The notes under the pieces: generated by a model
Database searches by the model: none
Seen by the model: the letters and a program-made list of their open reading frames with translations, nothing else
What the model was told of the DNA's origin: nothing
Origin: Escherichia phage P1
Length of the DNA: 64,000 nt
Reading direction: 5' to 3' (one strand)
Sequence record: MH445380.1
Part shown: positions 19,749 through 41,546 of the stretch, piece after piece
How the letters are laid out: every line of letters starts with the position of its first letter
Position numbering within the stretch: position 1 is the stretch's first letter
Made by a program: the position numbers and the translations under genes

Positions 19749-19749
19749 A

Positions 19750-23556: not shown

Positions 23557-23907
23557 TCAACCTGACGGCGGCGAATCACAAGCGTCCGGTTTGACGCTGG
23601 TTTCGGTCGCAGTGCTGGCCCGCGCCTGGAAGCGCTGATAGCACTCCAGCCCGCAGAAATGCTCCACGTACTCGGCCCCTTCCGGCGTGAAGGCGGCATC
23701 GAGCGGGATTTCCTTGCAGCACACGCAGCAACTGGTGCTCGGTTCATTGGCGTTCATGGTGGTGTTCCTCCATTGGTTGACGAAGCCGACGAAGGCCGCC
23801 GCCGGCATCGGCCTGGCGAACAGGAAACCCTGCACCGTGTCGCAACCCGCCTGCCGCAACCACGCAAGGCAGTCGGGTGTTTCCACACCCTCGGCTACCA
23901 CCTCCAT
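23557..23907 (-). CDS. tnpM: Tn21 TnpM-like ORF (116 aa)
   Basis: ATG lies at the inner edge of IRi (23905..23907), as expected for the Tn21 urf2M arrangement; the longer track ORF crosses IRi. Confidence 0.65.
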
Positions 23908-23932
23908 TGTCGTTTTCAGAAGACGGCTGCAC
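23908..23932. repeat. Class 1 integron IRi (25 bp)
   Basis: TGTCGTTTTCAGAAGACGGCTGCAC. Confidence 0.85.
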
Positions 23933-24109
23933 TGAACGTCAGAAGCCGACTGCACTATAGCAGCGGAGGGGTTGGATCCATCAGGCAACGACGGGCTGCT
24001 GCCGGCCATCAGCGGACGCAGGGAGGACTTTCCGCAACCGGCCGTTCGATGCGGCACCGATGGCCTTCGCGCAGGGGTAGTGAATCCGCCAGGATTGACT
24101 TGCGCTGCC

Positions 24110-25123
24110 CTACCTCTCACTAGTGAGGGGCGGCAGCGCATCAAGCGGTGAGCGCACTCCGGCACCGCCAACTTTCAGCACATGCGTGTAAATCATCGTC
24201 GTAGAGACGTCGGAATGGCCGAGCAGATCCTGCACGGTTCGAATGTCGTAACCGCTGCGGAGCAAGGCCGTCGCGAACGAGTGGCGGAGGGTGTGCGGTG
24301 TGGCGGGCTTCGTGATGCCTGCTTGTTCTACGGCACGTTTGAAGGCGCGCTGAAAGGTCTGGTCATACATGTGATGGCGACGCACGACACCGCTCCGTGG
24401 ATCGGTCGAATGCGTGTGCTGCGCAAAAACCCAGAACCACGGCCAGGAATGCCCGGCGCGCGGATACTTCCGCTCAAGGGCGTCGGGAAGCGCAACGCCG
24501 CTGCGGCCCTCGGCCTGGTCCTTCAGCCACCATGCCCGTGCACGCGACAGCTGCTCGCGCAGGCTGGGTGCCAAGCTCTCGGGTAACATCAAGGCCCGAT
24601 CCTTGGAGCCCTTGCCCTCCCGCACGATGATCGTGCCGTGATCGAAATCCAGATCCTTGACCCGCAGTTGCAAACCCTCACTGATCCGCATGCCCGTTCC
24701 ATACAGAAGCTGGGCGAACAAACGATGCTCGCCTTCCAGAAAACCGAGGATGCGAACCACTTCATCCGGGGTCAGCACCACCGGCAAGCGCCGCGACGGC
24801 CGAGGTCTTCCGATCTCCTGAAGCCAGGGCAGATCCGTGCACAGCACCTTGCCGTAGAAGAACAGCAAGGCCGCCAATGCCTGACGATGCGTGGAGACCG
24901 AAACCTTGCGCTCGTTCGCCAGCCAGGACAGAAATGCCTCGACTTCGCTGCTGCCCAAGGTTGCCGGGTGACGCACACCGTGGAAACGGATGAAGGCACG
25001 AACCCAGTGGACATAAGCCTGTTCGGTTCGTAAACTGTAATGCAAGTAGCGTATGCGCTCACGCAACTGGTCCAGAACCTTGACCGAACGCAGCGGTGGT
25101 AACGGCGCAGTGGCGGTTTTCAT
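24110..25123 (-). CDS. intI1: Class 1 integron integrase IntI1 (337 aa, intact)
   Basis: 337-aa tyrosine recombinase ORF ending ...[24 protein letters not shown]. Confidence 0.95.
25008..25036 (+). promoter_or_regulatory. Integron Pc promoter (TGGACA-17 bp-TAAACT) of second integron
   Basis: tggaca at 25008..25013 and taaact at 25031..25036. Confidence 0.6.
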
Positions 25124-25269
25124 GGCTTGTTATGACTGTTTTTTTGTACAGTCTATGCCTCGGGCATCCAAGCAGCAAGCGCGTTACGCCGTGGGTCGAT
25201 GTTTGATGTTATGGAGCAGCAACGATGTTACGCAGCAGGGCAGTTGCCCTAAAACAAAGTTAACCCAGG

Positions 25270-25752
25270 ATGAGAACCTTGAAAGTATCATTGATGGCTG
25301 CGAAAGCGAAAAACGGCGTGATTGGTTGCGGTCCAGACATACCCTGGTCCGCGAAAGGGGAGCAGCTACTTTTTAAAGCATTGACCTACAATCAGTGGCT
25401 TCTGGTGGGTCGCAAGACGTTTGAATCTATGGGCGCACTCCCCAATAGGAAATACGCGGTCGTTACCCGCTCAGGTTGGACATCAAATGATGACAATGTA
25501 GTTGTATTTCAGTCAATCGAAGAGGCCATGGACAGGCTAGCTGAATTCACCGGTCACGTTATAGTGTCTGGTGGCGGAGAAATTTACCGAGAAACATTAC
25601 CCATGGCCTCTACGCTCCACTTATCGACGATCGACATCGAGCCAGAGGGGGATGTTTTCTTCCCGAGTATTCCAAATACCTTCGAAGTTGTTTTTGAGCA
25701 ACACTTTACTTCAAACATTAACTATTGCTATCAAATTTGGAAAAAGGGTTAA
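25270..25752 (+). CDS. dfrA14: Trimethoprim-resistant dihydrofolate reductase, DfrA5/DfrA14 group
   Basis: DHFR ORF ...[18 protein letters not shown]...[12 protein letters not shown]; likely TTG start at 25279 giving 157 aa; allele not resolvable by eye. Confidence 0.8.
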
Positions 25753-25963
25753 CAAAGCTATGCAATCGACGGCAAAAAGCTTCGTTCGCTTCGCGCACTA
25801 CGCCTTTTCCGCGATTGATAGCGACGTTATGTGAATATTGAAATGAGCATTCCAAAGAAAGGAAGTAGAAAAATTATCGTGGGCGAAAATGAGTTTTTGT
25901 GGCTCATTAGGTCAAAACTCACATATTCGCAGGACTGTTTAGGTACAGAAATGACTGCGGTCG

Positions 25964-26239
25964 TTGAACCGGATGCCGGTCCTCACTGATGAAGAAGTGA
26001 ACACCGTACGGGAATCGTGCCGGCAGCTTGGAGCTATCGGCCGGAACCTCAACCAGGTGGCCAGGGCCTTGAACATCGAGTTCAGGGAAAGTGACAAGCT
26101 CAAGCAAGAGGCCATCGAAAAACTGGCCGAACGGATCGACCAGCATTTGGACCATGTGTCTGAGCTGTTCGATAAGACCTGGAGCCGGTGGCACGATTGT
26201 CATTTTCAGAAGACGACTGCACCAGTTGATTGGGCGTAA
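25964..26239 (+). pseudogene. MobC-like mobilisation protein fragment
   Basis: 91-codon ORF MNRMPVLTDEEVNTVRESCRQLGAIGRNLNQVARALN...; 3-prime end overlaps the IRt-like repeat. Confidence 0.4.
26198..26222. repeat. Class 1 integron IRt-like 25-bp repeat next to IS6100
   Basis: TGTCATTTTCAGAAGACGACTGCAC, same orientation as IRi. Confidence 0.75.
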
Positions 26240-26320
26240 TGGCTGTTGTGCAGCCAGCTCCTGACAGTTCAATATCAGAAGTGATCTGCACCAATCTCGA
26301 CTATGCTCAATACTCGTGTG

Positions 26321-27200
26321 GGCTCTGTTGCAAAAATCGTGAAGCTTGAGCATGCTTGGCGGAGATTGGACGGACGGAACGATGACGGATTTCAAGTGGC
26401 GCCATTTCCAGGGTGATGTGATCCTGTGGGCGGTGCGCTGGTATTGTCGCTATCCGATCAGCTATCGCGACCTTGAGGAAATGCTGGCGGAACGCGGCAT
26501 TTCGGTCGACCATACGACGATCTATCGCTGGGTCCAGTGCTACGCCCCGGAGATGGAGAAGCGGCTGCGCTGGTTCTGGCGGCGTGGCTTTGATCCGAGC
26601 TGGCGCCTGGATGAAACCTACGTCAAGGTGCGGGGCAAGTGGACCTACCTGTACCGGGCAGTCGACAAGCGGGGCGACACGATCGATTTCTACCTGTCGC
26701 CGACCCGCAGCGCCAAGGCAGCGAAGCGGTTCCTGGGCAAGGCCCTGCGAGGCCTGAAGCACTGGGAAAAGCCTGCCACGCTCAATACCGACAAAGCGCC
26801 GAGCTATGGTGCAGCGATCACCGAATTGAAGCGCGAAGGAAAGCTGGACCGGGAGACGGCCCACCGGCAGGTGAAGTATCTCAATAACGTGATCGAGGCC
26901 GATCACGGAAAGCTCAAGATACTGATCAAGCCGGTGCGCGGTTTCAAATCGATCCCCACGGCCTATGCCACGATCAAGGGATTCGAAGTCATGCGAGCCC
27001 TGCGCAAAGGACAGGCTCGCCCCTGGTGCCTGCAGCCCGGCATCAGGGGCGAGGTGCGCCTTGTGGAGAGAGCTTTTGGCATTGGGCCCTCGGCGCTGAC
27101 GGAGGCCATGGGCATGCTCAACCACCATTTCGCAGCAGCCGCCTGATCGGCGCAGAGCGACAGCCTACCTCTGACTGCCGCCAATCTTTGCAACAGAGCC
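26321..27200 (+). mobile_element. IS6100 (880 bp)
   Basis: 14-bp IRs GGCTCTGTTGCAAA at 26321 and complement ending 27200; IS6-family transposase CDS 26382..27146. Confidence 0.95.
26382..27146 (+). CDS. IS6100 transposase (254 aa)
   Basis: [39 protein letters not shown]... Confidence 0.93.
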   Translation: MTDFKWRHFQGDVILWAVRWYCRYPISYRDLEEMLAERGISVDHTTIYRWVQCYAPEMEKRLRWFWRRGFDPSWRLDETYVKVRGKWTYLYRAVDKRGDTIDFYLSPTRSAKAAKRFLGKALRGLKHWEKPATLNTDKAPSYGAAITELKREGKLDRETAHRQVKYLNNVIEADHGKLKILIKPVRGFKSIPTAYATIKGFEVMRALRKGQARPWCLQPGIRGEVRLVERAFGIGPSALTEAMGMLNHHFAAAA

Positions 27201-27638
27201 CGCCGTGCTAGTCTGCTCGGTGATGGTGGAGTGAAGCCAACCCGCAATCGGGTTATGAATCTGCATCGCGATTCGCAATCAGCTGTCTCTTGAGCATGTC
27301 GAACTCCTGCGATGTTATCTCGCCGTGCTCGTGCTGCTACACCAACTTGTCCAACTCATCCGCCACACCGCTCCCCACCACCTGCGATGGCCAGGTTGTT
27401 TGCTGGGCGCATTGGCGGAGTATCGTCTCGACCCGGGACACCCACACCGGCACAACCTTACGGGAGTGATTCACTGTCAAAGAATCGGCCCAGTGCTCTG
27501 ACGCAAGTATCGGGATGGTCACCATTTGTAAGCCGTAGACCTGAGTGGTGATCAAGACTTCGATACCACCGACCGTACCGGTACTAATCGACGACGGTCG
27601 TGTTCGTCGCCTGCCGCAGGGACTCTGCACACCTCCGT

Positions 27639-28223
27639 TTACGCATGTGCCTGGAGGAGTTGGAAATCGTCGTGTTCGGGAAACATTAAACACAGGATGG
27701 CAGCGATCTGAGCCAGCACATGATCAGCTAGCTCACCATCCGGATCGACGGCCCACTGCATCGTCGCGCCAGCGATGACCGAGTGCAGGAGCAACTCAGC
27801 TGCCGCAGGAGCACCTGGGGGCAGTCGCTTGCGGATCCCCTCCACCACCGCGCGGTTCCGCTGGATCGCAAGCGTGCGTAGCTCCGGCACCTGGAGCTCG
27901 TACCAGGAGATGAGATAGTTCACCGAGAAGTCGTTGCGAGTGTTCATGCTCCGAACGAGCACCTGCAAAAATTCCCAGAGCCCTTGCGGCCCTGCGCCTA
28001 TCGGTATCGCATTCAGGTAATGCCGCACCTGCTCGACGCCGCGCTCCATCATCCTCACCAGCAGCGTATCGCGGTTGGTGAAGCGCTGGATTAACGCTGC
28101 GCGGGAGAGCCCCACCTCCTTTGCTACTCCGCTGAGCGTGAACTCTATGGGACCGCAACGCTTCAGCACTACGGTGGCGGCCTCGAGTACCTCGTCATCG
28201 GACTTGAGCTTGGGGCGGGGCAT
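27639..28223 (-). CDS. mphR(A): TetR-family repressor MphR(A) (194 aa)
   Basis: 194-aa TetR-type ORF at the end of the mph(A)-mrx-mphR operon. Confidence 0.9.
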   Translation of the reverse strand: MPRPKLKSDDEVLEAATVVLKRCGPIEFTLSGVAKEVGLSRAALIQRFTNRDTLLVRMMERGVEQVRHYLNAIPIGAGPQGLWEFLQVLVRSMNTRNDFSVNYLISWYELQVPELRTLAIQRNRAVVEGIRKRLPPGAPAAAELLLHSVIAGATMQWAVDPDGELADHVLAQIAAILCLMFPEHDDFQLLQAHA

Positions 28224-29461
28224 CAGTGTTCACCTTCTGTATGGGTTGGGGCGGAGGCTGTGGCTGCCGCCGCCATTGTAGCAAATTGAAGACGGAGCGA
28301 GAGTAGAGCCACGAGCCCCGCAAACACGGCCGATACAACGAGGCCAGGGAGCGGACCAGCAAGGTCGACAAACGCGCCGGCCGCAAGCATAACCATGGGC
28401 GAGGCTGACAGCATCACCGCCGAGACCGTGCCGAGTACCCGGCCGAGAAGTTCTGGCGGCGTGCGGTTGTAGATGGCAGCGTTGAGAATGGGAGAGACTG
28501 AGCCGGTCAGCAGTCCCACGAGCGCGCCCAACAACATCAGCACCGGCACGCCTGGCAACTGTGAAAGCAGAAGCGAGCCCACCGCAGAGCCACAAAATGC
28601 CACCGCCAGCCAGTTCTGCGCTGATATCCGGGCGCCGACCGACGCATGAATGGCAATGCCAAGGAGACCACCAGCCCCCATCATTGAGGAGAACAGCCCG
28701 AGCTCTGCTACTTGGCGTCCTGCATCTACAAACAGCGCAGGCATGATGACGCTGCCGTTGGCGCCAACGATGCCCACGAAGATCATCACTATACCAAAGA
28801 GAGGGCGCAGCAGGGGTTCGCTCCAGAGAAAAGCGACGCCGGCGCGCATGGAGAGAGTCGCCGTCGTGGTCATCGTCCGAGCGGCACGCGCGGGAAGCAC
28901 CCACGCGCCGAGCAGACCTGCAAGGACGGAGCAGAACGCCGTCAGCCCGAGCGTTGGCGCAGCGCCAAGCAGGCCGATTGCGGCCCCCCCAAGGGCCGGG
29001 CCACCTAGAATCGCGACGTTCCCGATCACCGCTTTCAGTGACGAGACGCGCTCAACGGAGAGCCCGGCGACGTGGCCGAGTTTGGGCAGCTCACTGTCCT
29101 GCGCGGCCATACCGGGTGCGTCGAACGCGGCACCGAGCACCACGCAAGCGATCAGCCCAGTGTTCGAGAGGGCGCCAACGGCATCGAGCAGTGGGATGCT
29201 CGCCATGGCCACGCCGCCCACCACACCCGAGATCAATGCGACGGGCGCGCGCCCGAACCGATCGACGAGGCCACCACCAACCCACGCGCCGATGATGGTC
29301 GCGATGACGCTGCTAGCGGCCGTGGCGCCCGCCCAGGCCGCGCTCTTTGTATGAGACAGGACGAACCATGGAAGCGCGAGGGCCGCCACCGCGTTGCCGA
29401 TCCGGAAGAGAAAGGTCGCCGCGAACAGCGTCGCGAGCGGGCTATATCGACGTTCGCTCAT
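28223..29461 (-). CDS. mrx: MFS membrane protein Mrx (412 aa)
   Basis: 412-aa multi-TM ORF between mph(A) and mphR(A). Confidence 0.9.
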   Translation of the reverse strand: MSERRYSPLATLFAATFLFRIGNAVAALALPWFVLSHTKSAAWAGATAASSVIATIIGAWVGGGLVDRFGRAPVALISGVVGGVAMASIPLLDAVGALSNTGLIACVVLGAAFDAPGMAAQDSELPKLGHVAGLSVERVSSLKAVIGNVAILGGPALGGAAIGLLGAAPTLGLTAFCSVLAGLLGAWVLPARAARTMTTTATLSMRAGVAFLWSEPLLRPLFGIVMIFVGIVGANGSVIMPALFVDAGRQVAELGLFSSMMGAGGLLGIAIHASVGARISAQNWLAVAFCGSAVGSLLLSQLPGVPVLMLLGALVGLLTGSVSPILNAAIYNRTPPELLGRVLGTVSAVMLSASPMVMLAAGAFVDLAGPLPGLVVSAVFAGLVALLSLRLQFATMAAAATASAPTHTEGEH

Positions 29462-30363
29462 TCCGCTGCGGCGAGCTGCGCCTTCGCCGCAGCGAGGTAC
29501 TCTTCGTTACCCGAGTCGAGGGCGAAGAGTGCGTAGGTGACCGCCCCGAACGCAAGGCGCTCCGCGATGTGGTGGGCGAGCCGCGGCCACACCCGGCCAC
29601 CGGCCGCTTCATACGTGAGGAGGAGCTTCGCGAGCCCCTCTTCACCAAAGACCATAAGGTGCGCGGCCATGTCGATGGCAGGGTCATCAACGCGGGCCTC
29701 GCTCCAGTCGATCATCCCGCTGACGCGCTCCGTGTTGTCGATGAGCACATGGCCCACGTAGAGATCGCCATGCACCACCACGGAGAAATCTGGCCACGAC
29801 GAATCGTCGTCGAGCCAGCGCTGCCACCGGTGGAGGCGCTTGTCGTTCACCACGAACTCGCGTCGGACGCGGTCAACGTCGTCGGCCACCTTCTGACGGG
29901 CCTGCGTCGGTGTACGGATGAGCATCCCCGCATCCACGGCGGCGGAAATGGGGACGGCATGCAGGGCGGCGAGCGCGGTCGCGAAGCTCTCCGCGAAGAC
30001 CTCCGAGTCCTGCGGCACGACCCAGTCGGGCGTGGACGAACCAGGCTGGATGACCATCGCAGTCGAGTCTTCGAGCATGGGATAGGCAACGAGCTCGGCG
30101 TTGGCCACGCGCCAGTCCGGCACCGCGAACGGCAGGCGATTCTTGAGCATTGCCAGCACCCGCGCCTCTGGTTCGACCTTCGCGCTTACCTCGGCTCGGC
30201 GCGGGATGCGCAGCACCCACCGACGTCCATCGTCGACGGTGGCGATCACGATCCTATAGTCGAGCCCAAGCTCATTGACAGTCAGCGGGCCATGGAGCTT
30301 GAGCCCATGTCGGGCTGCAAGTGCGTACAGTTGGGAGGTATCGGCGGTCGTGACTACGGTCAT
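29458..30363 (-). CDS. mph(A): Macrolide 2'-phosphotransferase Mph(A) (301 aa)
   Basis: 301-aa APH-like kinase ORF with HGDLYVGHVLID catalytic segment. Confidence 0.93.
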   Translation of the reverse strand: MTVVTTADTSQLYALAARHGLKLHGPLTVNELGLDYRIVIATVDDGRRWVLRIPRRAEVSAKVEPEARVLAMLKNRLPFAVPDWRVANAELVAYPMLEDSTAMVIQPGSSTPDWVVPQDSEVFAESFATALAALHAVPISAAVDAGMLIRTPTQARQKVADDVDRVRREFVVNDKRLHRWQRWLDDDSSWPDFSVVVHGDLYVGHVLIDNTERVSGMIDWSEARVDDPAIDMAAHLMVFGEEGLAKLLLTYEAAGGRVWPRLAHHIAERLAFGAVTYALFALDSGNEEYLAAAKAQLAAAE

Positions 30364-30432
30364 GATTCACTCCTGAGGGCTTGACGGGTTTAGCCACCTA
30401 AATGTAACAGTCACGTCGGTTATATTCAATCC

Positions 30433-31252
30433 GGCACTGTTGCAAAGTTAGCGATGAGGCAGCCTTTTGTCTTATTCAAAGGCCTTACATTTCAAAAACT
30501 CTGCTTACCAGGCGCATTTCGCCCAGGGGATCACCATAATAAAATGCTGAGGCCTGGCCTTTGCGTAGTGCACGCATCACCTCAATACCTTTGATGGTGG
30601 CGTAAGCCGTCTTCATGGATTTAAATCCCAGCGTGGCGCCGATTATCCGTTTCAGTTTGCCATGATCGCATTCAATCACGTTGTTCCGGTACTTAATCTG
30701 TCGGTGTTCAACGTCAGACGGGCACCGGCCTTCGCGTTTGAGCAGAGCAAGCGCGCGACCATAGGCGGGCGCTTTATCCGTGTTGATGAATCGCGGGATC
30801 TGCCACTTCTTCACGTTGTTGAGGATTTTACCCAGAAACCGGTATGCAGCTTTGCTGTTACGACGGGAGGAGAGATAAAAATCGACAGTGCGGCCCCGGC
30901 TGTCGACGGCCCGGTACAGATACGCCCAGCGGCCATTGACCTTCACGTAGGTTTCATCCATGTGCCACGGGCAAAGATCGGAAGGGTTACGCCAGTACCA
31001 GCGCAGCCGTTTTTCCATTTCAGGCGCATAACGCTGAACCCAGCGGTAAATCGTGGAGTGATCGACATTCACTCCGCGTTCAGCCAGCATCTCCTGCAGC
31101 TCACGGTAACTGATGCCGTATTTGCAGTACCAGCGTACGGCCCACAGAATGATGTCACGCTGAAAATGCCGGCCTTTGAATGGGTTCATGTGCAGCTCCA
31201 TCAGCAAAAGGGGATGATAAGTTTATCACCACCGACTATTTGCAACAGTGCC
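30433..31252 (-). mobile_element. IS26 (820 bp), copy 3, same orientation as copy 1
   Basis: IRs at 30433..30446 and 31239..31252; Tnp26 CDS 30485..31189 minus strand. Confidence 0.97.
30485..31189 (-). CDS. tnp26: IS26 transposase Tnp26
   Basis: Identical to other copies. Confidence 0.95.
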   Translation of the reverse strand: MNPFKGRHFQRDIILWAVRWYCKYGISYRELQEMLAERGVNVDHSTIYRWVQRYAPEMEKRLRWYWRNPSDLCPWHMDETYVKVNGRWAYLYRAVDSRGRTVDFYLSSRRNSKAAYRFLGKILNNVKKWQIPRFINTDKAPAYGRALALLKREGRCPSDVEHRQIKYRNNVIECDHGKLKRIIGATLGFKSMKTAYATIKGIEVMRALRKGQASAFYYGDPLGEMRLVSRVFEM

Positions 31253-31325
31253 AACGCCGGGTTATTCTTATTTGTCGCTTCTTTACTCGCCTTTATCGGC
31301 CTTCACTCAAGGATGTATTGTGGTT

Positions 31326-32186
31326 ATGCGTTATATTCGCCTGTGTATTATCTCCCTGTTAGCCACCCTGCCGCTGGCGGTACACGCCAGCCCGCAGCCG
31401 CTTGAGCAAATTAAACAAAGCGAAAGCCAGCTGTCGGGCCGCGTAGGCATGATAGAAATGGATCTGGCCAGCGGCCGCACGCTGACCGCCTGGCGCGCCG
31501 ATGAACGCTTTCCCATGATGAGCACCTTTAAAGTAGTGCTCTGCGGCGCAGTGCTGGCGCGGGTGGATGCCGGTGACGAACAGCTGGAGCGAAAGATCCA
31601 CTATCGCCAGCAGGATCTGGTGGACTACTCGCCGGTCAGCGAAAAACACCTTGCCGACGGCATGACGGTCGGCGAACTCTGCGCCGCCGCCATTACCATG
31701 AGCGATAACAGCGCCGCCAATCTGCTGCTGGCCACCGTCGGCGGCCCCGCAGGATTGACTGCCTTTTTGCGCCAGATCGGCGACAACGTCACCCGCCTTG
31801 ACCGCTGGGAAACGGAACTGAATGAGGCGCTTCCCGGCGACGCCCGCGACACCACTACCCCGGCCAGCATGGCCGCGACCCTGCGCAAGCTGCTGACCAG
31901 CCAGCGTCTGAGCGCCCGTTCGCAACGGCAGCTGCTGCAGTGGATGGTGGACGATCGGGTCGCCGGACCGTTGATCCGCTCCGTGCTGCCGGCGGGCTGG
32001 TTTATCGCCGATAAGACCGGAGCTAGCAAGCGGGGTGCGCGCGGGATTGTCGCCCTGCTTGGCCCGAATAACAAAGCAGAGCGCATTGTGGTGATTTATC
32101 TGCGGGATACGCCGGCGAGCATGGCCGAGCGAAATCAGCAAATCGCCGGGATCGGCGCGGCGCTGATCGAGCACTGGCAACGCTAA
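31326..32186 (+). CDS. blaSHV-12: SHV-type class A beta-lactamase with Q35, S238, K240 (SHV-12-like ESBL), 286 aa
   Basis: [38 protein letters not shown]...[12 protein letters not shown]...; substitutions relative to SHV-1 as I recall it; track ORF has a 26-codon artefactual extension. Confidence 0.88.
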
Positions 32187-32206
32187 CCCGGCGGTGGCCG
32201 CGCGCG

Positions 32207-32968
32207 TTATCCGGCCCGCAGCACCTCGCAGGCGTGCCGGGCGATATGACTGGCGGCGGCATCGGAAAGATGCCGGTCGGTAATGATGGTGGTGAACCGG
32301 GTCAAAGGTAACGCCATAAACGTGGCCACCTGATTGTATTTCGAACTGTCGCACAGCAGGATGCTTCTCGCGCTGACCTGGCTGACGGTCTCCTTGACGG
32401 TAACCTTGTTCTCATCAGGGGTGAATATCCCGCGACTGTCCCAGCCGCTGGCGGAGATAAAGGCCGTATCGATAGCCAGGTGGCGTAACGTACGCGCCGC
32501 CGATTCGCCCACGCAGGAGCGGTTCTCCCGGCACAGAGTGCCGCCGGTGTGGATCACGCCGCACTGGCTGGCATCGATCAGCAGCTGGGTTATCTCAAAA
32601 TCATTGGTGACCACCTGGAGATCGTTCCGGTCGAGGATCGCCCGCGCCAGCGCCAGGGTGGTAGTCCCGGCATCCAGATAGATGCAACTGTTTTTAGCGA
32701 TATGACTCGCCGCCAGCGCGCCGATCGCCTGTTTCTCCTCACTCTGCAGCGTGCTTTTCACCAGATGACTGGGTTCCGCGGCCAGCCGGCTGACGGCGCG
32801 TACGCCGCCCGAGACGCTGACCAGCAGCCCCTGCTCCTCCAGTTTACTGACGTCCCGACGGATGGTCATATGGGACACGCCGAGGATCTCCGTCAGCTCG
32901 TTAATGCTTACCGCCCCACGCTGCTCCACCAGGGCTAAAATACGCTGATGTCGTTCTATTGGAATCAC
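32207..32968 (-). CDS. DeoR-family transcriptional regulator (chromosome-derived passenger)
   Basis: N-terminal HTH (RHQRILALVEQRGAVSINELTEILGVSHMTIRRDVSKLEEQGLL) plus sugar-binding-like C-domain. Confidence 0.8.
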   Translation of the reverse strand: MIPIERHQRILALVEQRGAVSINELTEILGVSHMTIRRDVSKLEEQGLLVSVSGGVRAVSRLAAEPSHLVKSTLQSEEKQAIGALAASHIAKNSCIYLDAGTTTLALARAILDRNDLQVVTNDFEITQLLIDASQCGVIHTGGTLCRENRSCVGESAARTLRHLAIDTAFISASGWDSRGIFTPDENKVTVKETVSQVSARSILLCDSSKYNQVATFMALPLTRFTTIITDRHLSDAAASHIARHACEVLRAG

Positions 32969-33106
32969 CGCTCTCCCCTTACCATTTTTTCACACCAGGC
33001 GTCACCACCCAGGCTACGGCCCTGGCGACACCCGGTGTTGTTATCGCGCTTTGCCGCTGTTTTTTACGCTATTTTAGGGCAAGAATCGCCGCTGTGCAGC
33101 CTCTTT

Positions 33107-33144
33107 GGGGGAACCGCAGAATTCGGAAAAAATCGTACGCTAAG
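33107..33144. repeat. Tn1721-type 38-bp IR (left)
   Basis: GGGGGAACCGCAGAATTCGGAAAAAATCGTACGCTAAG. Confidence 0.88.
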
Positions 33145-33295
33145 CTAACGGTGTTCTCGTGACAGCTCTTTGACTAGGCTTTCTAAGGCCATTCTGATAG
33201 CCCTGACTTCCTGAAAAGCCATGGCTAAAATTTGTGCGGCTAAAAGGGATAACCGATGGTAAAGTAAGTTATCCCTGTCGAGATACTGAAAAGCG

Positions 33296-34873
33296 TTATC
33301 CTCGTTTTTCCCAAAACTGTTTTGCCAGTTCGCTCAGAGCGCTAGTTAACTGAGCGACAGATTTCGCACTTTGCAAATTATTCTGCCCGGTCTGTACATT
33401 GGTATCAGCAGCATCGCGTATATTGATAATACTGCGGTTTATGTCTTCACTTACTGCTCCCTGCTGCTCGACCGCAGTCGCTATTTGCGCGTTCATGTCG
33501 GTAATTTCGTTAACGCGTTGGCCAATTCCATCAAGAGCTGTAGCTGCTTCCTCTGCGTGAGCTACACTCGTGTGCGCTTGCCGACTACTTTGCTCCATGA
33601 CTGTAACAGCGGATTGCGCTCGCTCTTGTAGAGCGCTGATCATGCTTTGAATATCCGTTGTCGATTGCTGTGTGCGAGCAGCAAGACTGCGAACCTCATC
33701 GGCGACAACAGCAAAACCACGCCCCTGCTCACCAGCACGCGCGGCCTCAATTGCTGCGTTGAGTGCCAACAAATTCGTTTGCTCGGCGATCCCTCGTATA
33801 ACGTCAAGAACTTTTGATATCTCGTTACTTTGACCTTCAAGCTCATGAATAACCTGAGTGGCTTGCCTAATTTCACCTTCAAGGGCAGTGATTGACTGGC
33901 TTGTGTGGGCTACCAGACGCTGGCCAGATGCCGTCTCAGTGTCTGCTCTTCCGGCCGCATCTGCAGCATGCTGTGCATTGCTCGCAACCTCTTGAATGCT
34001 TGCCACCATTTGGTTTACTGCCGTTGCTATTTGATCTGTCTCTGCCTGCTGCTCAACTGTAAGTACATTGCTTGACTCAATATCCTTTAGTAGGCCTCGG
34101 GTGTGTTCGCTAAGCCGATTTGATGCATCACCTATGCGACCTACTATGGCGCCTGTTTCAGCTTGCATCATTCGTAAAGCAAACTCTATTTGGCCAAACT
34201 CATCGGTGCGCCCAGTGTAGAGGGATTGACTTAATGGGTTATTGGAAATATTCCTGGCTCTTTCAACCAGTCTTCCAAGAGGAGAGAGAATAGCCAAAAC
34301 ACTAACAGAGCTTAAGCTTCCTGACATTAAAGTGGCTAACAATAAGCTGCTTATTGATGTATCAGTAAGCATGCCGGCAGCCATTGCGCTTGATATAATA
34401 CTACCCCATATGAGCAAGAGTATTTTCACGGAAAAGCTAGCAGCCAATTTCGGCCTCGCGGCCTTCCCGCTTCTCAATTGAGCATATAATTTTTCCGCAG
34501 CCAAAACCTGCTCAGGTTCAGGCTTGGTCCTTACAGACTGGTATTCAACAATCGAACCATTCTTAGCTATTGGCGTTACATAAGCACTTACCCAATAGTG
34601 GTCGCCATTTTTACAGCGATTTTTTACTAGCCCCATCCATGAGCGGCCAGATTTTAATGTACTCCACATATGCTCAAATGCAGCAGGCGGCATATCTGGG
34701 TGTCTTACGATGTTGTGAGGCTGGCCTAATAGTTCTTCCTCAGTGAAACCACTGATTTTAATGAAGTCAGGATTAACGTACGTGATATGGCTTTGAGGGG
34801 AGGTAGTCGAAAGAATATTGGCATCTTTTGGGAGTTCTAAGTTTCGACCCGTCACTGGTAAATTCTGGCGCAT
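33296..34873 (-). CDS. mcp: PAS-domain methyl-accepting chemotaxis-like protein of Tn1721 (orfI)
   Basis: 525-aa ORF: N-terminal PAS-like segment, TM region, highly conserved MCP signalling domain (...[31 protein letters not shown]...). Confidence 0.85.
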
Positions 34874-35182
34874 AAGAACCTCAAGGGTTGGCTGTTTTAT
34901 TTTATTGTTTTCGGCATTAAGCCCAATTTCTTGAGCGTTACGATAAAGCTAGCATGGAAACGATAGGTGCAAGCAAGTTAAGGGTTGCATCGCGCATGTC
35001 AATCTAGGCTATACCCTAACTTGATGTCAGGCAGGGCCGCGCCGCTTCGTCAGAATAGAGTCTGCTTTCCCATTTTTTGACACATGCCCGCGAAGGTTAT
35101 AGATTTCAGCCTGACAGAAATGGGCTTTGAGGCACAACGGAACAGAAAGTGCACTTAAGCCGCCTTCAACCAAGGAGACATC
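34874..35182. promoter_or_regulatory. Tn1721 res / divergent promoter region
   Basis: Intergenic region between divergent mcp and tnpR. Confidence 0.5.
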
Positions 35183-35743
35183 GTGCAGGGGCACCGCATC
35201 GGCTACGTCCGGGTCAGCAGCTTTGACCAGAACCCGGAACGCCAGCTGGAACAAACCCAGGTGAGCAAGGTGTTCACCGACAAGGCATCGGGCAAGGACA
35301 CCCAGCGCCCCCAGCTCGAAGCGCTGCTGAGCTTCGTCCGCGAAGGCGATACAGTGGTGGTGCACAGCATGGATCGGCTGGCCCGCAACCTCGATGACCT
35401 GCGTCGCTTGGTACAGAAGCTGACTCAGCGCGGCGTGCGCATCGAGTTCCTGAAGGAGGGCCTGGTGTTCACTGGCGAGGACTCGCCGATGGCCAACCTG
35501 ATGCTGTCGGTGATGGGGGCCTTCGCTGAGTTCGAGCGCGCCCTGATCCGCGAGCGGCAGCGTGAGGGCATCGCCTTGGCCAAGCAGCGTGGCGCGTACC
35601 GGGGCCGCAAGAAAGCCCTGTCCGATGAGCAGGCTGCTACCCTGCGGCAGCGAGCGACGGCCGGCGAGCCCAAGGCGCAGCTTGCCCGCGAGTTCAACAT
35701 CAGCCGGGAAACCCTCTACCAGTACCTCCGCACGGACGACTGA
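35183..35743 (+). CDS. tnpR: Tn1721-type resolvase TnpR (186 aa)
   Basis: [21 protein letters not shown]...; distinct sequence from the Tn21 copy. Confidence 0.95.
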   Translation: MQGHRIGYVRVSSFDQNPERQLEQTQVSKVFTDKASGKDTQRPQLEALLSFVREGDTVVVHSMDRLARNLDDLRRLVQKLTQRGVRIEFLKEGLVFTGEDSPMANLMLSVMGAFAEFERALIRERQREGIALAKQRGAYRGRKKALSDEQAATLRQRATAGEPKAQLAREFNISRETLYQYLRTDD

Positions 35744-35746
35744 CAC

Positions 35747-38713
35747 ATGCCGCGTCGCTTGATCCTCTCGGCCACGGAGCGGGACACCCTGCTTGCGCTG
35801 CCGGAAAGCCAGGATGACCTGATCCGCTACTACACCTTCAACGACTCCGACCTGTCGCTGATCCGCCAGCGACGCGGCGACGCCAACCGCCTCGGCTTCG
35901 CCGTGCAGCTCTGCCTGCTGCGCTACCCCGGTTACGCGCTGGGAACCGACAGCGAGCTGCCCGAGCCGGTCATCCTGTGGGTGGCGAAGCAAGTCCAGGC
36001 CGAGCCGGCGAGCTGGGCAAAGTACGGCGAGCGCGACGTGACCCGTCGCGAGCATGCCCAGGAACTGCGCACCTACCTGCAACTGGCCCCGTTCGGCCTG
36101 TCCGACTTCCGCGCCCTGGTGCGCGAGCTAACCGAGCTGGCCCAGCAGACCGACAAAGGCTTGCTGCTGGCCGGTCAGGCCCTGGAGAGCCTACGGCAGA
36201 AACGACGCATCCTGCCGGCGCTGAGCGTGATTGACCGGGCCTGCTCGGAAGCCATTGCGCGAGCCAATCGGCGGGTCTACCGCGCCCTGGTCGAACCACT
36301 CACGGACTCGCATCGGGCCAAGCTGGACGAGCTGTTGAAGCTCAAGGCCGGCAGCAGCATCACCTGGTTGACCTGGCTGCGCCAGGCACCGCTGAAACCC
36401 AACTCTCGGCACATGCTGGAACACATCGAGCGGCTGAAGACATTTCAGTTGGTGGACTTGCCCGAAGGCCTGGGCCGGCACATCCACCAGAACCGCCTGC
36501 TCAAGCTGGCCCGCGAGGGTGGGCAGATGACGCCCAAAGACCTCGGTAAGTTCGAGCCGCAGCGCCGCTACGCGACCCTGGCCGCCGTGGTGCTGGAGAG
36601 CACCGCGACCGTGATCGATGAGCTGGTCGATCTGCATGACCGCATCCTGGTCAAGCTGTTCAGCGGCGCGAAGCACAAGCATCAGCAGCAGTTCCAGAAG
36701 CAGGGCAAGGCGATCAACGACAAGGTGCGCCTGTACTCCAGGATCGGCCAGGCGCTGCTGGAAGCGAAGGAAAGCGGCAGCGACCCCTATGCCGCCATCG
36801 AGGCGGTGATTCCCTGGGACGAGTTCACCGAGAGCGTCAGCGAGGCCGAGCTGCTGGCCCGGCCGGAAGGCTTCGACCACCTGCACCTGGTCGGCGAGAA
36901 CTTCGCCACCCTGCGCCGTTACACGCCGGCCTTGCTGGAGGTGCTGGAACTGCGCGCCGCGCCGGCCGCGCAAGGCGTGCTGGCAGCCGTGCAGACCCTG
37001 CGTGAGATGAACGCCGACAACCTGCGCAAGGTGCCGGCCGATGCACCCACGGCCTTCATCAAGCCGCGCTGGAAGCCGCTGGTGATCACCCCGGAAGGCC
37101 TCGACCGGAAATTCTACGAAATCTGCGCCCTGTCCGAGCTGAAGAACGCCCTGCGCTCCGGCGACATCTGGGTCAAGGGCTCGCGGCAGTTCCGCGACTT
37201 CGACGACTACCTGCTGCCGGCCGAGAAGTTCGCCGCACTCAAGCGCGAGCAGGCCCTGCCCCTGGCGATCAACCCGAACAGCGACCAGTACCTGGAAGAG
37301 CGTTTGCAGCTGCTGGACGAGCAGTTGGCCACCGTCACCCGCCTGGCCAAGGACAACGAGCTGCCCGATGCCATCCTCACCGAGTCAGGGCTGAAAATCA
37401 CCCCGCTGGATGCGGCGGTGCCGGATCGGGCGCAGGCGCTGATCGACCAAACCAGCCAGTTACTGCCGCGCATCAAGATCACCGAATTGCTGATGGACGT
37501 GGACGACTGGACGGGCTTCAGCCGCCACTTCACCCACTTGAAGGACGGGGCCGAGGCCAAAGACAGGACGTTGCTGCTGTCCGCAATCCTCGGTGATGCG
37601 ATCAACCTCGGGCTGACCAAGATGGCCGAGTCGAGCCCCGGCCTGACCTACGCCAAGCTGTCCTGGCTGCAAGCCTGGCACATCCGCGACGAAACCTATT
37701 CGGCGGCCTTGGCCGAGCTGGTCAACCACCAGTATCGCCACGCCTTTGCCGCCCACTGGGGCGACGGCACGACCTCATCCTCCGATGGCCAGCGCTTCCG
37801 CGCGGGTGGCCGGGGCGAGAGCACCGGGCACGTCAACCCGAAGTACGGTAGCGAGCCGGGACGGCTGTTCTATACCCACATCTCCGACCAATACGCGCCA
37901 TTCCACACCAAGGTGGTCAATGTCGGCCTGCGCGACTCAACCTACGTGCTCGACGGCCTGCTGTACCACGAGTCCGACCTGCGGATCGAGGAGCACTACA
38001 CCGACACGGCCGGCTTCACCGATCACGTCTTTGCCCTGATGCACCTGCTAGGCTTCCGCTTCGCGCCGCGCATCCGCGACCTCGGCGAAACCAAGCTGTA
38101 CGTGCCGCAGGGCGTGCAAGCCTACCCGACGTTGCGCCCGCTGATCGGCGGCACCCTGAACATCAAGCACGTGCGTGCCCACTGGGACGACATCCTGCGC
38201 CTGGCCAGCTCGATCAAGCAGGGCACCGTCACCGCCTCGCTGATGCTGCGCAAGCTCGGCAGCTACCCGCGCCAGAACGGACTGGCCGTGGCCCTGCGCG
38301 AGCTGGGCCGGATCGAGCGCACGCTGTTCATCCTGGACTGGCTGCAAAGTGTTGAACTGCGCCGCCGCGTGCATGCCGGCCTGAACAAAGGTGAGGCGCG
38401 CAACTCGCTGGCCAGGGCGGTGTTCTTCAACCGCCTTGGGGAAATCAGGGATCGGAGCTTCGAGCAGCAGCGCTACCGGGCCAGCGGCCTCAACCTGGTG
38501 ACGGCGGCTATCGTGCTGTGGAACACGGTGTACCTGGAACGCGCCACCCAGGGGTTGGTCGAGGCCGGCAAGCCGGTGGACGGCGAGCTGCTGCAATTCC
38601 TGTCGCCGCTGGGCTGGGAGCACATCAACCTAACCGGCGATTACGTCTGGCGGCAGAGCCGCAGACTGGAAGACGGGAAGTTTCGGCCCTTACGGATGCC
38701 CGGAAAACCTTAG
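35747..38713 (+). CDS. tnpA: Tn1721-type transposase TnpA (988 aa)
   Basis: 988-aa Tn3-family transposase, diverged from the Tn21 TnpA at 5647..8613. Confidence 0.95.
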
Positions 38714-38746
38714 CGTACGATTTTTTCCGAATTCTGCGGGCTCCCC
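38709..38746. repeat. Tn1721-type 38-bp IR (right, tnpA end)
   Basis: Reverse complement GGGGAGCCCGCAGAATTCGGAAAAAATCGTACGCTAAG. Confidence 0.9.
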
Positions 38747-38751
38747 GTTAA
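38747..38751. repeat. Right copy of 5-bp target-site duplication GTTAA
   Basis: gttaa directly abutting the IR. Confidence 0.75.
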
Positions 38752-38902
38752 CAGCTTCCATGATGAAATAAAAAAGCCTGGCAAGGAGCCAGGCTGCACA
38801 AAAGAGCGGGTTTGTATTCCGCATCCAATCAATCAAGAAGGAGTATAGCACACAGGTACTGAAGTGAAAAAATGTGATTCGCGATAAATAAAATATCTAC
38901 CA

Positions 38903-38919
38903 TTGCTCTAATTGATTGC
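38903..38919. promoter_or_regulatory. C1 operator-like motif overlapping a TATAAT -10 element upstream of ref
   Basis: attgctctaattgattg followed by ctataat at 38919..38925. Confidence 0.55.
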
Positions 38920-39016
38920 TATAATTGAGCCGCAGTTTTTGTCAACTACGAAGACGTTGCCATTACTTCACTCCTTGACATCATTGGCGGCCATTAGGCC
39001 GCCTTTTTTTTGCCAT

Positions 39017-39577
39017 ATGAAAACAATCGAACAAAAACTTGAACAGCGCCGCGAGTGGCAGAAGGCAGCCAGAGAACGAGCGATCGCTCGGCAACGGGAA
39101 AAGTTGGCTGACCCCGCCTGGCGAGAATCGCAATATCAGAAAATGCGGGATTCTATCGACCGCCGTATCGCTAAACAGAAAGAGCGCCCACCAGCCAGCA
39201 AAACGCGGAAAAGTGCGGTAAAAATAAAATCTCGTGGCTTGAAGGGACGAACACCGACGGCGGAGGAACGGCGTATAGCCAATGCTCTTGGCGCTCTCCC
39301 CTGCATTGCCTGCTATATGCATGGAGTAATATCTGAAGAGGTGTCTCTGCACCATATCTCCGGTCGTACCGCGCCGGGTTGTCACAAAAAGCAGTTGCCA
39401 CTTTGTAGATGGCACCACCAGCATGCAGCACCGGCTGAAGTAAGAGAAAAATACCCCTGGCTGGTCCCTGTTCATGCCGATGGTGTGGTTGGAGGCAAGA
39501 AAGAATTCACCTTGCTGAACAAGTCAGAGATGGAGTTACTGGCTGACGCCTATGAGATGGCAAACATCATGCACTAA
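39017..39577 (+). CDS. ref: Ref (recombination enhancement function) HNH-type endonuclease, 186 aa
   Basis: ATG at 39017 (MKTIEQKLEQRREWQ...); cysteine/histidine cluster CIACYMHG...CHKKQLPLCRWHHQH; position after c8 as in P1. Confidence 0.8.
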   Translation: MKTIEQKLEQRREWQKAARERAIARQREKLADPAWRESQYQKMRDSIDRRIAKQKERPPASKTRKSAVKIKSRGLKGRTPTAEERRIANALGALPCIACYMHGVISEEVSLHHISGRTAPGCHKKQLPLCRWHHQHAAPAEVREKYPWLVPVHADGVVGGKKEFTLLNKSEMELLADAYEMANIMH

Positions 39578-39766
39578 TAAATATATTATTTTTAATGATA
39601 AATGATTGACAACTGACAAGTGACTTCAGTCAGAATCATCACACGCCCGGTACGGATGGATCCCTTTTCAAATATTCCATGGACGGCACAGTCTGAGTAC
39701 CGGGCGCTACCTTCAGTTGTATTGCTAAGCCGCCGCTGGTGGCTTTTCTTTTTTGTAGGGGGCGCT

Positions 39767-40408
39767 ATGGATAAGAAAATATGCGTTGTTTCGATGAGCG
39801 TCGGCAAACCGGCGTCAATGACTGCTGCATGGATCAATAACGAGCTGATAATGGCTGAGCGGACCAGCTACCCTGAACGCCGCCGCGATATGGAACTCCA
39901 GCTGCTGCGCGAATTGCGAGAAAAAGAGGAAAAGGGTTTTATCGTGCTGGTGGAAGAGGAAAACAGCTTTATTACTGGTCGAGTTGGCCAGCGTGTAAGG
40001 TTGCGCGATCCCTTCATGAACGGCAGGCCGGTACTGATTGAAGCAATGCAGATTTACAAGGAGCTGGAACGCCAGAAAGCGATCAAGTTACCGCGCAAGG
40101 AATCCGGCAAATACATCCTCCACCAAAGCATCTTCGATTCCGAACACGATAAAAAAGGCGATGAATTTTTCAACATCAACTGGAGCGAAATAACGACAGA
40201 GCATGTTCTGACGTTACTATGTTGCTTTGCGACGGAATACAACAACGTTGCCAGCGCCGAGTACATCAGGGCAATGGCTTCTGAAGTGGATAGTCGTGAT
40301 GACTCATCGCTGATAGCGTCATATATAAACATCATCAAGAAAACTCAAATTATGGGATGCGCTAGAGTTCCTCAAGGAATACTCACCGGAAAGAATAATA
40401 TTCTATAA
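39767..40408 (+). CDS. mat: Hypothetical protein in P1 mat position (213 aa from ATG 39767); AT-rich 3-prime end
   Basis: ATG preceded by GGGGG Shine-Dalgarno; track ORF 39620..40408 starts at an upstream alternative codon; name from synteny only. Confidence 0.45.
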   Translation: MDKKICVVSMSVGKPASMTAAWINNELIMAERTSYPERRRDMELQLLRELREKEEKGFIVLVEEENSFITGRVGQRVRLRDPFMNGRPVLIEAMQIYKELERQKAIKLPRKESGKYILHQSIFDSEHDKKGDEFFNINWSEITTEHVLTLLCCFATEYNNVASAEYIRAMASEVDSRDDSSLIASYINIIKKTQIMGCARVPQGILTGKNNIL

Positions 40409-40453
40409 CCTACGAAGGTTATTTGTTACTTTCTGCGTAAACCCACAACTAAC

Positions 40454-40473
40454 CTTCCTAAGTTAAGGAAGGT
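40454..40473. terminator. Bidirectional hairpin between convergent genes
   Basis: ccttcc-taagttaa-ggaagg stem-loop followed by tattt. Confidence 0.5.
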
Positions 40474-40505
40474 ATTTATCATGAAGTGTAGACATAAGCG
40501 TATTA

Positions 40506-41546
40506 TTACATGGGCTTAACCACAACCTTTCCGTATATATCAAGTTTTGATTGTAATACGTTGACGTGAGACAATTCTTTATTCGAACTAACTTTATCTA
40601 AAATTATATTTTTATCTTTTTCAGTCATGTTATACCCTAAGGTAATTTGCTTGAATGCAGAAAAAGGAATTTTCTTTAAGTTAATTTCATGATAGTCATG
40701 AAAAACATCAGGATACTCATTCAATAGGCAATCATCAATCGATGGAGAGACAATGCTTCCTATTTTTCTCTCGCAATCAGCCAATGGAAAAATAATTCTA
40801 CTTTCATTTTCAGGAAGCCACTCTTCACCTTTTGTATAAAGAAGCCTATTAATAAAAAGCTCGCGAACTGGATCTCGATTTAAGATCCCATGCAATGTAT
40901 TATCTTTATTCTTTATATCTATATTCCTCGATGGCGCAGGATAGCCATTAAATCGCACAGCGCCTTTATAATAGGTTACAGATGCTCTATCTTCTGGATT
41001 ATAACTAACATCACACGGCCGATATATTTTAAAAAAATCGTGTGTTTCATCGAAAACTACAGCAAACCCCTTTCCTATCGATGCATAATGAGTCCACATG
41101 TGTAGATTGCAATCACTTTTTGATAGAGAGAATACACCAAGATGACAGCTTACGGCTTCTACTAAATAATCGTTAAGGTACGTTACTATTTCTTGGAGTT
41201 TAGATTCATCATATGAATCCATTGAGGTAAAACCTTCATTGATTAACAAGTGTGGAAAATCCTCTCCGTATCGTTTCCCGCAAGGTTTTAAATAATACTC
41301 TAACTCTTGTATAGATGGGACATAAGATGGATCTCGTTGCATTTTCTTAAATTCATTTCTAGCCCATGCGTAATCGGCTGGTGAAAATTTATTAAAAAAT
41401 GGAAGAAGTCGCGACTCACTCGACGGATCATTAAGATACTTTGGTTGCGTTGCTCTAAAGAAACCATCCTCCAGACAAGATGTTCTAATGTGCATGCCCG
41501 GCCAAGGTTTTTCCATATAACTCTCGCCTATATATTTAACTAACAC
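40506..41546 (-). CDS. AT-rich hypothetical protein (346 aa from GTG 41546; ATG alternative at 41516) occupying the P1 res-mod position; candidate defence gene, DUF2971-like motif
   Basis: Single long ORF, ~35% GC by eye against ~50% flanks; motif LHMWTHYASIGKGFAVVFDETHDF; AGGA 10 nt upstream of GTG. Confidence 0.6.
   Translation of the reverse strand: MLVKYIGESYMEKPWPGMHIRTSCLEDGFFRATQPKYLNDPSSESRLLPFFNKFSPADYAWARNEFKKMQRDPSYVPSIQELEYYLKPCGKRYGEDFPHLLINEGFTSMDSYDESKLQEIVTYLNDYLVEAVSCHLGVFSLSKSDCNLHMWTHYASIGKGFAVVFDETHDFFKIYRPCDVSYNPEDRASVTYYKGAVRFNGYPAPSRNIDIKNKDNTLHGILNRDPVRELFINRLLYTKGEEWLPENESRIIFPLADCERKIGSIVSPSIDDCLLNEYPDVFHDYHEINLKKIPFSAFKQITLGYNMTEKDKNIILDKVSSNKELSHVNVLQSKLDIYGKVVVKPM

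Follow-up and report, generated by a model that had tools for sequence, protein, structure and literature searches.

An SHV-12 beta-lactamase gene on a P1-like phage-plasmid lies within a Tn21-derived resistance island with hybrid ends

We analyzed a 64,000-nucleotide stretch of DNA recorded as Escherichia phage P1 (MH445380.1; hereafter the window), in which the extended-spectrum beta-lactamase (ESBL) gene blaSHV-12 and a neighboring regulator gene, deoR, lie between the insertion sequence IS26 and the transposon Tn1722. A preliminary description had proposed that this segment was captured on the phage-plasmid itself. Our analysis suggests instead that the blaSHV-12 module arrived in the P1-like element within a 33-kb resistance island coming from a known plasmid region, an explanation to which we give a probability of about 85%. 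The island entered the intergenic region between cre and ref by a Tn3-family transposition that duplicated the sequence GTTAA. It derives from a region composed of Tn21, a sul3 integron, IS26-blaSHV-12 and Tn1721 that is carried by IncI1-, IncHI2- and IncF-type plasmids, for example plasmid p1 of E. coli EC23. Coordinates are collected in Table 1.

The island is flanked on both sides by GTTAA. In the P1-like plasmid NZ_CP023961.1 the site is empty: a single GTTAA is present (76877..76881) and the flanks are contiguous at 100% identity, as is also the case in other P1-like plasmids. Together, the repeats and the empty site in relatives indicate that 5614..38746 is one insertion with the 5-bp duplication of the Tn3 family. 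The G+C content of the island is 55.5%, compared with 48.9% in the backbone. One island end carries a Tn21-type inverted repeat (IR), IRtnp, followed by tnpA and tnpR of the same family. The cognate second end, IRmer, is missing, as no second Tn21-type IR was found within the window. The opposite end is formed by the right inverted repeat (IRR) of Tn1722, which is identical to the Tn21 IR at 27 of 38 positions. The island appears to work like a Tn21-family transposon, yet it is not a canonical member.

To place the resistance gene, we compared its product with reference proteins. The mechanically called open reading frame (ORF) opens at a GTG codon (31248); the true gene starts at the ATG at 31326. 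The protein agrees at all 286 residues with WP_002904004.1, the RefSeq entry named 'extended-spectrum class A beta-lactamase SHV-12', and it scores above the cut-off of the NCBIfam SHV model NF000285 (666.4 bits against 640). At the nucleotide level, the 1903 bases 31208..33110 match at 100% many plasmid records that carry the AMRFinder call blaSHV-12. The alignment thus bears out the allele with Q35, S238 and K240 that had been proposed. Relative to the chromosomal gene of K. pneumoniae ATCC 13883, coding changes occur only at precursor codons 31 (CTA to CAA, L to Q), 234 (GGC to AGC, G to S) and 235 (GAA to AAG, E to K), which by standard numbering are Ambler L35Q, G238S and E240K; two further changes are silent. 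Judged by its translation, the gene is exactly SHV-12, a well-known ESBL. From the identity of the allele, the enzyme should confer resistance to oxyimino-cephalosporins (ceftazidime, cefotaxime) and to aztreonam.

We also observed that E240K (window 32025..32030) lies two substitutions away from the ATCC 13883 codon (GAA to AAG). This suggests that the plasmid lineage stems from a chromosomal allele with GAG and not from the allele of the type strain.

The segment that holds blaSHV-12 and deoR is collinear with the ATCC 13883 chromosome, intergenic DNA included, at 99.08% identity over 1,852 columns. In a scan of one genome per species, the deoR protein was 100% identical to the chromosomal ygbI homologue of the same strain, which sits on a 5.28-Mb chromosomal scaffold. 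Its top NCBIfam model is YgbI (379.6 bits, slightly under the 400-bit cut-off). The homology with Klebsiella breaks off precisely where the two mobile elements meet it, at the IS26 end (31252) on one side and at base one of the Tn1722 left inverted repeat (IRL; 33107) on the other. The boundaries given in the preliminary description (31253..33106) are therefore exact, running from the first base after IS26 to the last base before the IRL, and its assignment of deoR and the segment to a Klebsiella chromosome agrees with this comparison. On this evidence, the blaSHV-deoR segment comes from the Klebsiella chromosome. IS26 cut the 1.85-kb piece on its left side, and the insertion of Tn1722 into the ygbI-ygbJ intergenic region cut it on its right. 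None of the confirmed features is a chance pattern.

Tn1722 is about 5.6 kb long, has a 38-bp IR at each end and carries its genes in the order mcp-tnpR-tnpA; it is 99.8% identical to the copy in EC23 p1. As had been noted, it has no 5-bp duplication of its own: its left flank is TCTTT and its right flank GTTAA, so that its ends now lie in different contexts. When the junction between deoR and Tn1722 was searched with an 801-bp query, 81 PLSDB plasmids covered at least 80% of it, and identity was 100% in all 40 records among the matches listed. The records come from at least nine genera, with Klebsiella, Enterobacter, Serratia, Citrobacter, Aeromonas, Shewanella, Raoultella, Leclercia and E. 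coli represented. The arrangement IS26-SHV-12-deoR-Tn1722 is also present in 23 complete E. coli genomes, and IS26-blaSHV-12-deoR has been termed a 'classical' environment in published descriptions (PMC12179637, PMC9319951). Because the IS26-blaSHV and deoR-Tn1722 junctions are base-for-base identical in many plasmids, we conclude that they were made elsewhere and not on the P1-like element. The DNA upstream of this module has a counterpart as well. An IncF plasmid with blaSHV-2a carries the context mphA-IS26-blaSHV and shows the same order, IS6100-mphR-mrx-mphA-IS26-blaSHV, as the window; there, the Klebsiella segment continues into ygbJ-ygbK.

A donor-type structure was found on EC23 p1, a plasmid from the human gut (Spain) whose repA, yacAB and colicin Ia genes are characteristic of the IncI1 type. 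It holds a 26,951-bp Tn21 derivative between IRmer and IRtnp, with its own duplication, TGGCT, and with the order IRmer-tet(A)/Tn1721 part-Tn1722-deoR-SHV-12-IS26-SDR-sul3 integron-intI1-tnpR-tnpA-IRtnp. On this plasmid the Tn1722 IRR and IRmer point in one direction, and 23,029 bp separate the IRR from IRtnp. Tn21-derived transposons that combine an atypical sul3 integron, IS26-blaSHV-12 and a Tn1721 remnant have been described on IncI1, IncHI2 and IncF plasmids (PMC9319951, PMC12179637). Our model proposes that a transposase would pair the Tn21 IRtnp with the nearer, non-cognate Tn1722 IRR and insert that unit into the P1-like plasmid. We infer this pairing of unlike ends from the duplication and the structure of the donor. 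The TEM-1 module, the dfrA-mph(A) module and an inversion of the sul3 segment would arise by IS26 activity, before or after the insertion.

Relative to EC23 p1, fragments of intI1 and of the tnpR/res region occur in duplicate in window 12032..25261. The inverted sul3 segment, the duplicated pieces and the IS26 copies without duplications point to several IS26-mediated rearrangements.

The IS26 copy directly upstream of blaSHV-12 (copy 3) has 14-bp terminal IRs (GGCACTGTTGCAAA) and ends 73 bp from the ATG. The three copies in the island are identical to one another, and matching records annotate an IS26-family transposase. The flanks of copy 3, TTCAATCC and AACGCCGG, form no 8-bp target duplication, and the other two copies also lack one. 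This is expected for IS26 after cointegrate or recombination events and is no argument against its identity. Read directly from the sequence, a candidate hybrid promoter has its -35 element within the IS26 IR and its -10 element in the Klebsiella DNA. An IS26 hybrid promoter has been demonstrated for blaSHV-2a (PMC7986276), and on this literature basis we kept the candidate, which most likely drives the transcription of blaSHV-12.

The carrier is P1-like, in agreement with the preliminary description. Across window 40000..64000, identity with MH422554.1 ('Punavirus P1') is 100%; phage P1 aligns to 88% of these 24 kb, at 98.2% identity. Proteins of the window match PHROG families for terminase, portal, endolysin, a DarA-type protein and Ref. 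Backbone synteny and identity, packaging, head and lysis genes, cre and c1 are all found, and phage functions flank the island on both sides. The IncY replicon (repA, parAB) and the lytic replicon, which would fall beyond the 64-kb window, are presumed from MH422554.1 to be present. That record comes from infant faeces (Spain), is 97,213 bp long and is labelled circular and complete. It shares with the window the backbone and both junctions between the island and P1 DNA. Window 1..6056 is identical to it; when the comparison is extended to 6159, all 13 mismatches fall in the last 100 bases of the record, inside tnpA. The first base of the record corresponds to window 38369, inside the other tnpA, the two tnpA genes being inverted and about 83% similar. 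Since MH422554.1 breaks within both tnpA genes and the interior of the island is absent from it, we consider that the contig was broken at the island, and its status as circular and complete is doubtful.

We also noticed that the ORF (5322..5678) to which related records give the annotation 'lysogeny establishment', originally of 103 codons, has lost its last 6 codons to the insertion and has instead 21 codons from the Tn21 end.

Adding the interior of the island to MH422554.1 gives an estimate of 129,422 bp for the whole element, on the assumption that MH422554.1 is the same element outside the window. P1 packages headfuls from pac, and its headful measures about 105-115 kb, compared with a P1 genome of 94.8 kb. 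The complete element, at about 129 kb, therefore probably exceeds one P1 head, and the molecule in any one particle would be expected to be incomplete and non-redundant. In general, a headful corresponds to 102-110% of the phage genome (PMC9006064), and Pfeifer and colleagues stated that a sudden large gain in size precludes packaging of the genome (PMC9600943). With an element of this size above the P1 headful, simple transfer by lysogenisation is doubtful and the case for it weaker than the preliminary description had implied.

Packaging of P1 proceeds from pac towards lox and cre. If this direction applies here, the island would be in the first headful and the ESBL gene could still be delivered. 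Rescue would then be required, through co-infection, through recombination with a P1-like plasmid already resident in the cell, or through transposition. We would expect blaSHV-12 to be mobile with the whole island, via IS26 cointegration, or by way of homologous recombination with other plasmids at IS26 or Tn1722, and phage spread of the intact element to be possible only via inefficient routes. Spread by conjugation had also been suggested. We found no transfer genes in the window or in the P1 backbone record, and related P1-like plasmids are typed as non-mobilizable, IncY. Thus, conjugation is unsupported.

Several points weigh against this account of the island and its carrier. Compared with EC23 p1, the island shows an 11-kb inversion, duplications and two extra IS26-linked modules. 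For the proposed mechanism, we found no documented case of one transposase pairing a Tn21 IR with a Tn1722 IR. Tn21-subgroup transposases partly cross-complement one another, which we take only as a lead. The candidate hybrid promoter fits the consensus at 8 of 12 positions and for this reason was not listed by a consensus scan. The estimate of about 129 kb depends on the assumption made about MH422554.1. Finally, the multidrug-resistant (MDR) P1-like element pTZ20_1P, with about 46 kb of inserted DNA, was reported to lysogenise one of three strains (PMC6906374), so size alone is not decisive, and a P1-like element with CTX-M-55 was shown to complete the phage cycle and to lysogenise (PMC9600943). 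We put forward the most extended version of our model only tentatively, and rate it somewhat below even odds. In this version the island is a working hybrid transposon (Tn21 IRtnp plus Tn1722 IRR) that, through its non-cognate inner end, carried blaSHV-12 and about 10 further resistance genes from IncI1-type plasmids into a P1 phage-plasmid, raised its size to about 15-25 kb above the headful and so in effect turned a phage into a plasmid that is non-transmissible or transmissible only cooperatively.

One could argue, as the preliminary description did, that IS26 captured the Klebsiella segment beside Tn1722 on the phage-plasmid, which then spread as a functional phage and by conjugation. The local structure fits this view: the segment is bordered by IS26 and by the Tn1722 IRL, and Tn1722 has no duplication. 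The backbone has packaging, portal and lysis genes, and P1-like elements with CTX-M-55 (PMC9600943) or an MDR region (PMC6906374) have been shown to lysogenise. The position of a Klebsiella segment between IS26 and Tn1722 is upheld. The place of capture is a different matter, because both junctions are identical in many unrelated plasmids and were pre-formed, the same contiguous arrangement exists on the IncI1-type plasmid EC23 p1, and the whole 33-kb island has its own GTTAA duplication. Capture in situ is already contradicted by these data. The proposed spread meets its own obstacles, namely the missing transfer genes, the relatives typed as non-mobilizable and a size of about 129 kb, above the P1 headful (PMC9600943). 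Taken as a whole, we regard this scenario as very improbable.

A stepwise build-up deserves more weight, although we still consider it unlikely. Here, a smaller element reaching from IRtnp to the Tn1722 IRR would have inserted first, and SHV-12 and the other modules would have been swapped in later by homologous recombination with a co-resident plasmid, using Tn1722, IS26 or the tnp genes of Tn21. Three identical IS26 copies without duplications, the 11-kb inversion and the duplicated intI1 and tnpR fragments do indicate extensive rearrangement, and simpler insertions of Tn1722 or of Tn21-like elements are found near cre-ref in other P1-like plasmids. Against this, the full order from IRtnp through IS26-SHV-12-deoR to the Tn1722 IRR is already contiguous on an IncI1-type plasmid, so that arrival in one piece requires fewer events, and we found no P1-like intermediate at this GTTAA site in PLSDB, E. 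coli genomes, IMG/VR or metagenomes. An assembly artefact, in which the island was misjoined to a P1-like contig through repeats, would be consistent with the breaks of MH422554.1 inside both tnpA genes and the absence of the island interior there, which mark the region as hard to assemble. A misjoin would not produce what is seen at both ends, where terminal IRs meet P1 DNA with a perfect 5-bp duplication and an empty site in relatives. The same two junctions are contained in MH422554.1, and we give an artefact the least credence of all. Arrival of the blaSHV-12 module within the island remains our preferred explanation.

Other P1-like IncY plasmids carry Tn1722 or Tn21-like (TnAs3) insertions (CP057799.1; NZ_CP148508.1, 22230..22420). 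One of these lies about 110 bp from the island site, in cre-ref, and the others at different places along the backbone; Tn3-family elements may target cre-ref recurrently. Tn1722 in other P1-like plasmids was considered as an ancestral insertion at this site and rejected, as the insertions in CP057799.1 and pZ1323CEC0001-2 are at other positions.

We searched for relatives of the complete arrangement. No PLSDB or complete E. coli genome record contains either junction between the island and P1 DNA, and exact-match scans of IMG/VR and the JGI metagenomes returned neither of the two; only MH422554.1 shares them. SHV-12 plasmids of P1-like size (pGF47-B, EC19 p3, pLR-71-1_1 and pSECR25-9519-1) were considered as relatives, and none is P1-like. 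A literature search gave no report of SHV-12 on a P1-like, IncY or phage-plasmid element.

In a contig classified as 'viral' in IMG/VR (IMGVR_UViG_2847832212_000004), the IS26-SHV-12-deoR-Tn1722 module is identical, its chemotaxis gene has an insertion, and a second class A beta-lactamase of 294 aa is also encoded. It was rejected as a P1 relative, being a 143-kb plasmid of Aeromonas hydrophila (NZ_CP016381.1). Two weaker matches to this contig, a 79.6%-identical Aeromonas plasmid and a Leclercia plasmid, have a gene annotated as terminase in the matching stretch. The contig may be a different kind of phage-plasmid with SHV-12.

Beyond blaSHV-12, the island carries further resistance modules (Table 1). 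In the sul3 segment, the gene order is an SDR gene, sul3, an IS256-family remnant, aadA1, cmlA, an aadA2-type gene, a HAD hydrolase gene (psp), estX and a truncated intI1.

Table 1 Features of the window and its matches to EC23 p1
Feature	Coordinates	Strand	Details
P1-like backbone left of island	1..5613		100% to MH422554.1; PHROG terminase and integrase matches
pacA (partial)	within 1..5613		
pacB	726..2210		
c1	2235..3086	-	
cre	4240..5271		
'Lysogeny establishment' ORF	starts 5322		
Target-site duplication, left copy	5609..5613		GTTAA
Resistance island	5614..38746		33,133 bp; Tn21-type IR left, Tn1722 IRR right
Tn21-family (TnAs3-type) transposition end	5614..9176	-	100% identical to EC23 p1 30576..26894
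IRtnp	5614..5651		38/38 match to Tn21 IR
tnpA (Tn21-family)	5647..8613	-	Tn3-family transposase model
tnpR (Tn21-family)	8616..9176	-	
IS26	9296..10115		
Tn2/Tn3 IR	10503..10540		
blaTEM-1	10650..11510	-	285/285 to TEM-1 WP_000027057.1; TEM family model match
IS26, inverted	12032..12851		
sul3-type class 1 integron segment	12852..23041		Inverted relative to EC23 p1; NCBIfam matches
sul3	14872..15663		
aadA1, cmlA, aadA2-type gene, estX	within 17345..22382		Integron resistance genes
Second integron piece, IS6100-like region and mph(A) module	23908..30363		
IRi	23908..23932		
intI1	24110..25123	-	
dfrA1-family cassette	25270..25752		66% identical to DfrA17; resembles dfrA5
IRt	26198..26222		IS6100-like region after IRt
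mphR(A)	27639..28223	-	
mrx(A)	28223..29461	-	
mph(A)	29458..30363	-	
IS26 copy 3	30433..31252	-	820 bp; single transposase gene; directly upstream of blaSHV-12
Candidate IS26 hybrid promoter	31240..31268	+	-35 TTGCAA 31240..31245; 17-nt spacer; -10 TATTCT 31263..31268
K. pneumoniae chromosome-derived segment	31253..33106	.	1,854 bp; 61% G+C
blaSHV-12	31326..32186	+	ATG start; 286 aa; Q35, S238, K240 (Ambler)
ygbI-type DeoR/GlpR regulator gene (deoR)	32207..32968	-	Intact; 253 aa
Tn1722	33107..38746	+	5,640 bp; transposition part of Tn1721; Tn3 family, TnAs1 type
Tn1722 IRL	33107..33144		38 bp; 38/38 match
Methyl-accepting chemotaxis gene (Tn1722)	33296..34873	-	
tnpR (Tn1722)	35183..35743	+	
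tnpA (Tn1722)	35747..38713	+	
Tn1722 IRR	38709..38746		Differs from IRL at 3 positions
Target-site duplication, right copy	38747..38751		GTTAA
P1-like backbone right of island	38752..64000		100% to MH422554.1; includes ref, mat, pro, ddrB; PHROG matches
darB	42318..49085	-	
Portal gene	49161..50870		
Lysozyme gene	52174..52773	-	
darA	59160..61079	-	
Match to EC23 p1	5613..9295		100%
Match to EC23 p1 (15041..26040)	12032..23041		99.89%; inverted
Match to EC23 p1	23041..25261		99.87%
Match to EC23 p1	30433..38746		99.82%

ESBL genes on phage-plasmids are watched because spread without cell contact is conceivable. Our analysis adds SHV-12 to the list of ESBLs on P1-like elements; the papers and collections that we searched contain no earlier report. 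A route is also suggested, in which a resistance transposon derived from Tn21 and already assembled, of a type common on the IncI1, IncHI2 and IncF plasmids of E. coli from poultry and humans, moves into cre-ref. A caution follows for the interpretation of such records: a gene on a P1-like element is not automatically phage-transmissible, and in this case the inserted DNA has probably brought the genome above the size that can be packaged. The message for surveillance is an ordinary one: neither the gene nor its context is new, and the replicon that carries them is non-conjugative.

Compared with known systems, the module belongs to the classical environment, IS26-blaSHV-12-deoR(ygbI) cut short by Tn1721/Tn1722, of IncX3, IncI1, IncHI2, IncF and KPC plasmids, to which it is identical over 31208..33110 and across the deoR-Tn1722 junction. 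The distance of 73 bp between IS26 and the ATG is also found there. In contrast to that environment, mph(A) comes before IS26 in the window, and a P1-like replicon is the carrier. The wider island resembles the Tn21-derived sul3 region of IncI1-type plasmids (EC23 p1; pCAZ590 and pCE1867-A in PMC9319951; pUR2632 in PMC12179637), a Tn21 derivative with its own 5-bp duplication, as seen for EC23 p1. The window and EC23 p1 have in common the tnpA-tnpR end (100%), the sul3 integron (99.9%) and the IS26-SHV-12-deoR-Tn1722 block (99.8%). The island differs from the IncI1-type region in that it ends on the right with the Tn1722 IRR instead of IRmer, lacks the tet(A) part, has its integron segment in inverted orientation, has gained the TEM-1 and dfrA-IS6100-mph(A) modules, and has a phage-plasmid as its target.

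Among 50,697 phage records, blaSHV was found only in the P1-like Escherichia phage RCS47 (FO818745), which carries the ESBL-type blaSHV-2 with Klebsiella ygbI and is 99.5% identical over the shared 1.85 kb. In RCS47 the IS26 composite is longer (lacY'-recF-kdpC-blaSHV-2-ygbI-J-K-L-M') and sits at the isaA/IS1 locus; Tn1722 and a Tn21 island are both absent, and the phage measures 115 kb. The two blaSHV acquisitions are independent and involve different alleles. Like the window element, SJ46 (CTX-M-27), the CTX-M-55 element (PMC9600943) and pTZ20_1P (PMC6906374) combine a P1 backbone with resistance genes that arrived through IS26 and Tn3-family elements, and Tn1722 and sul3 integrons recur among ESBL-bearing P1-like phage-plasmids. 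Those elements carry other genes at other insertion sites, and lysogenic transfer has been shown for some of them. Every component of the island, and the occurrence of ESBL genes on P1-like phage-plasmids, was thus already known; what is new is the combination of SHV-12 with a P1-like carrier, the hybrid-ended island and the likely oversize of the element.

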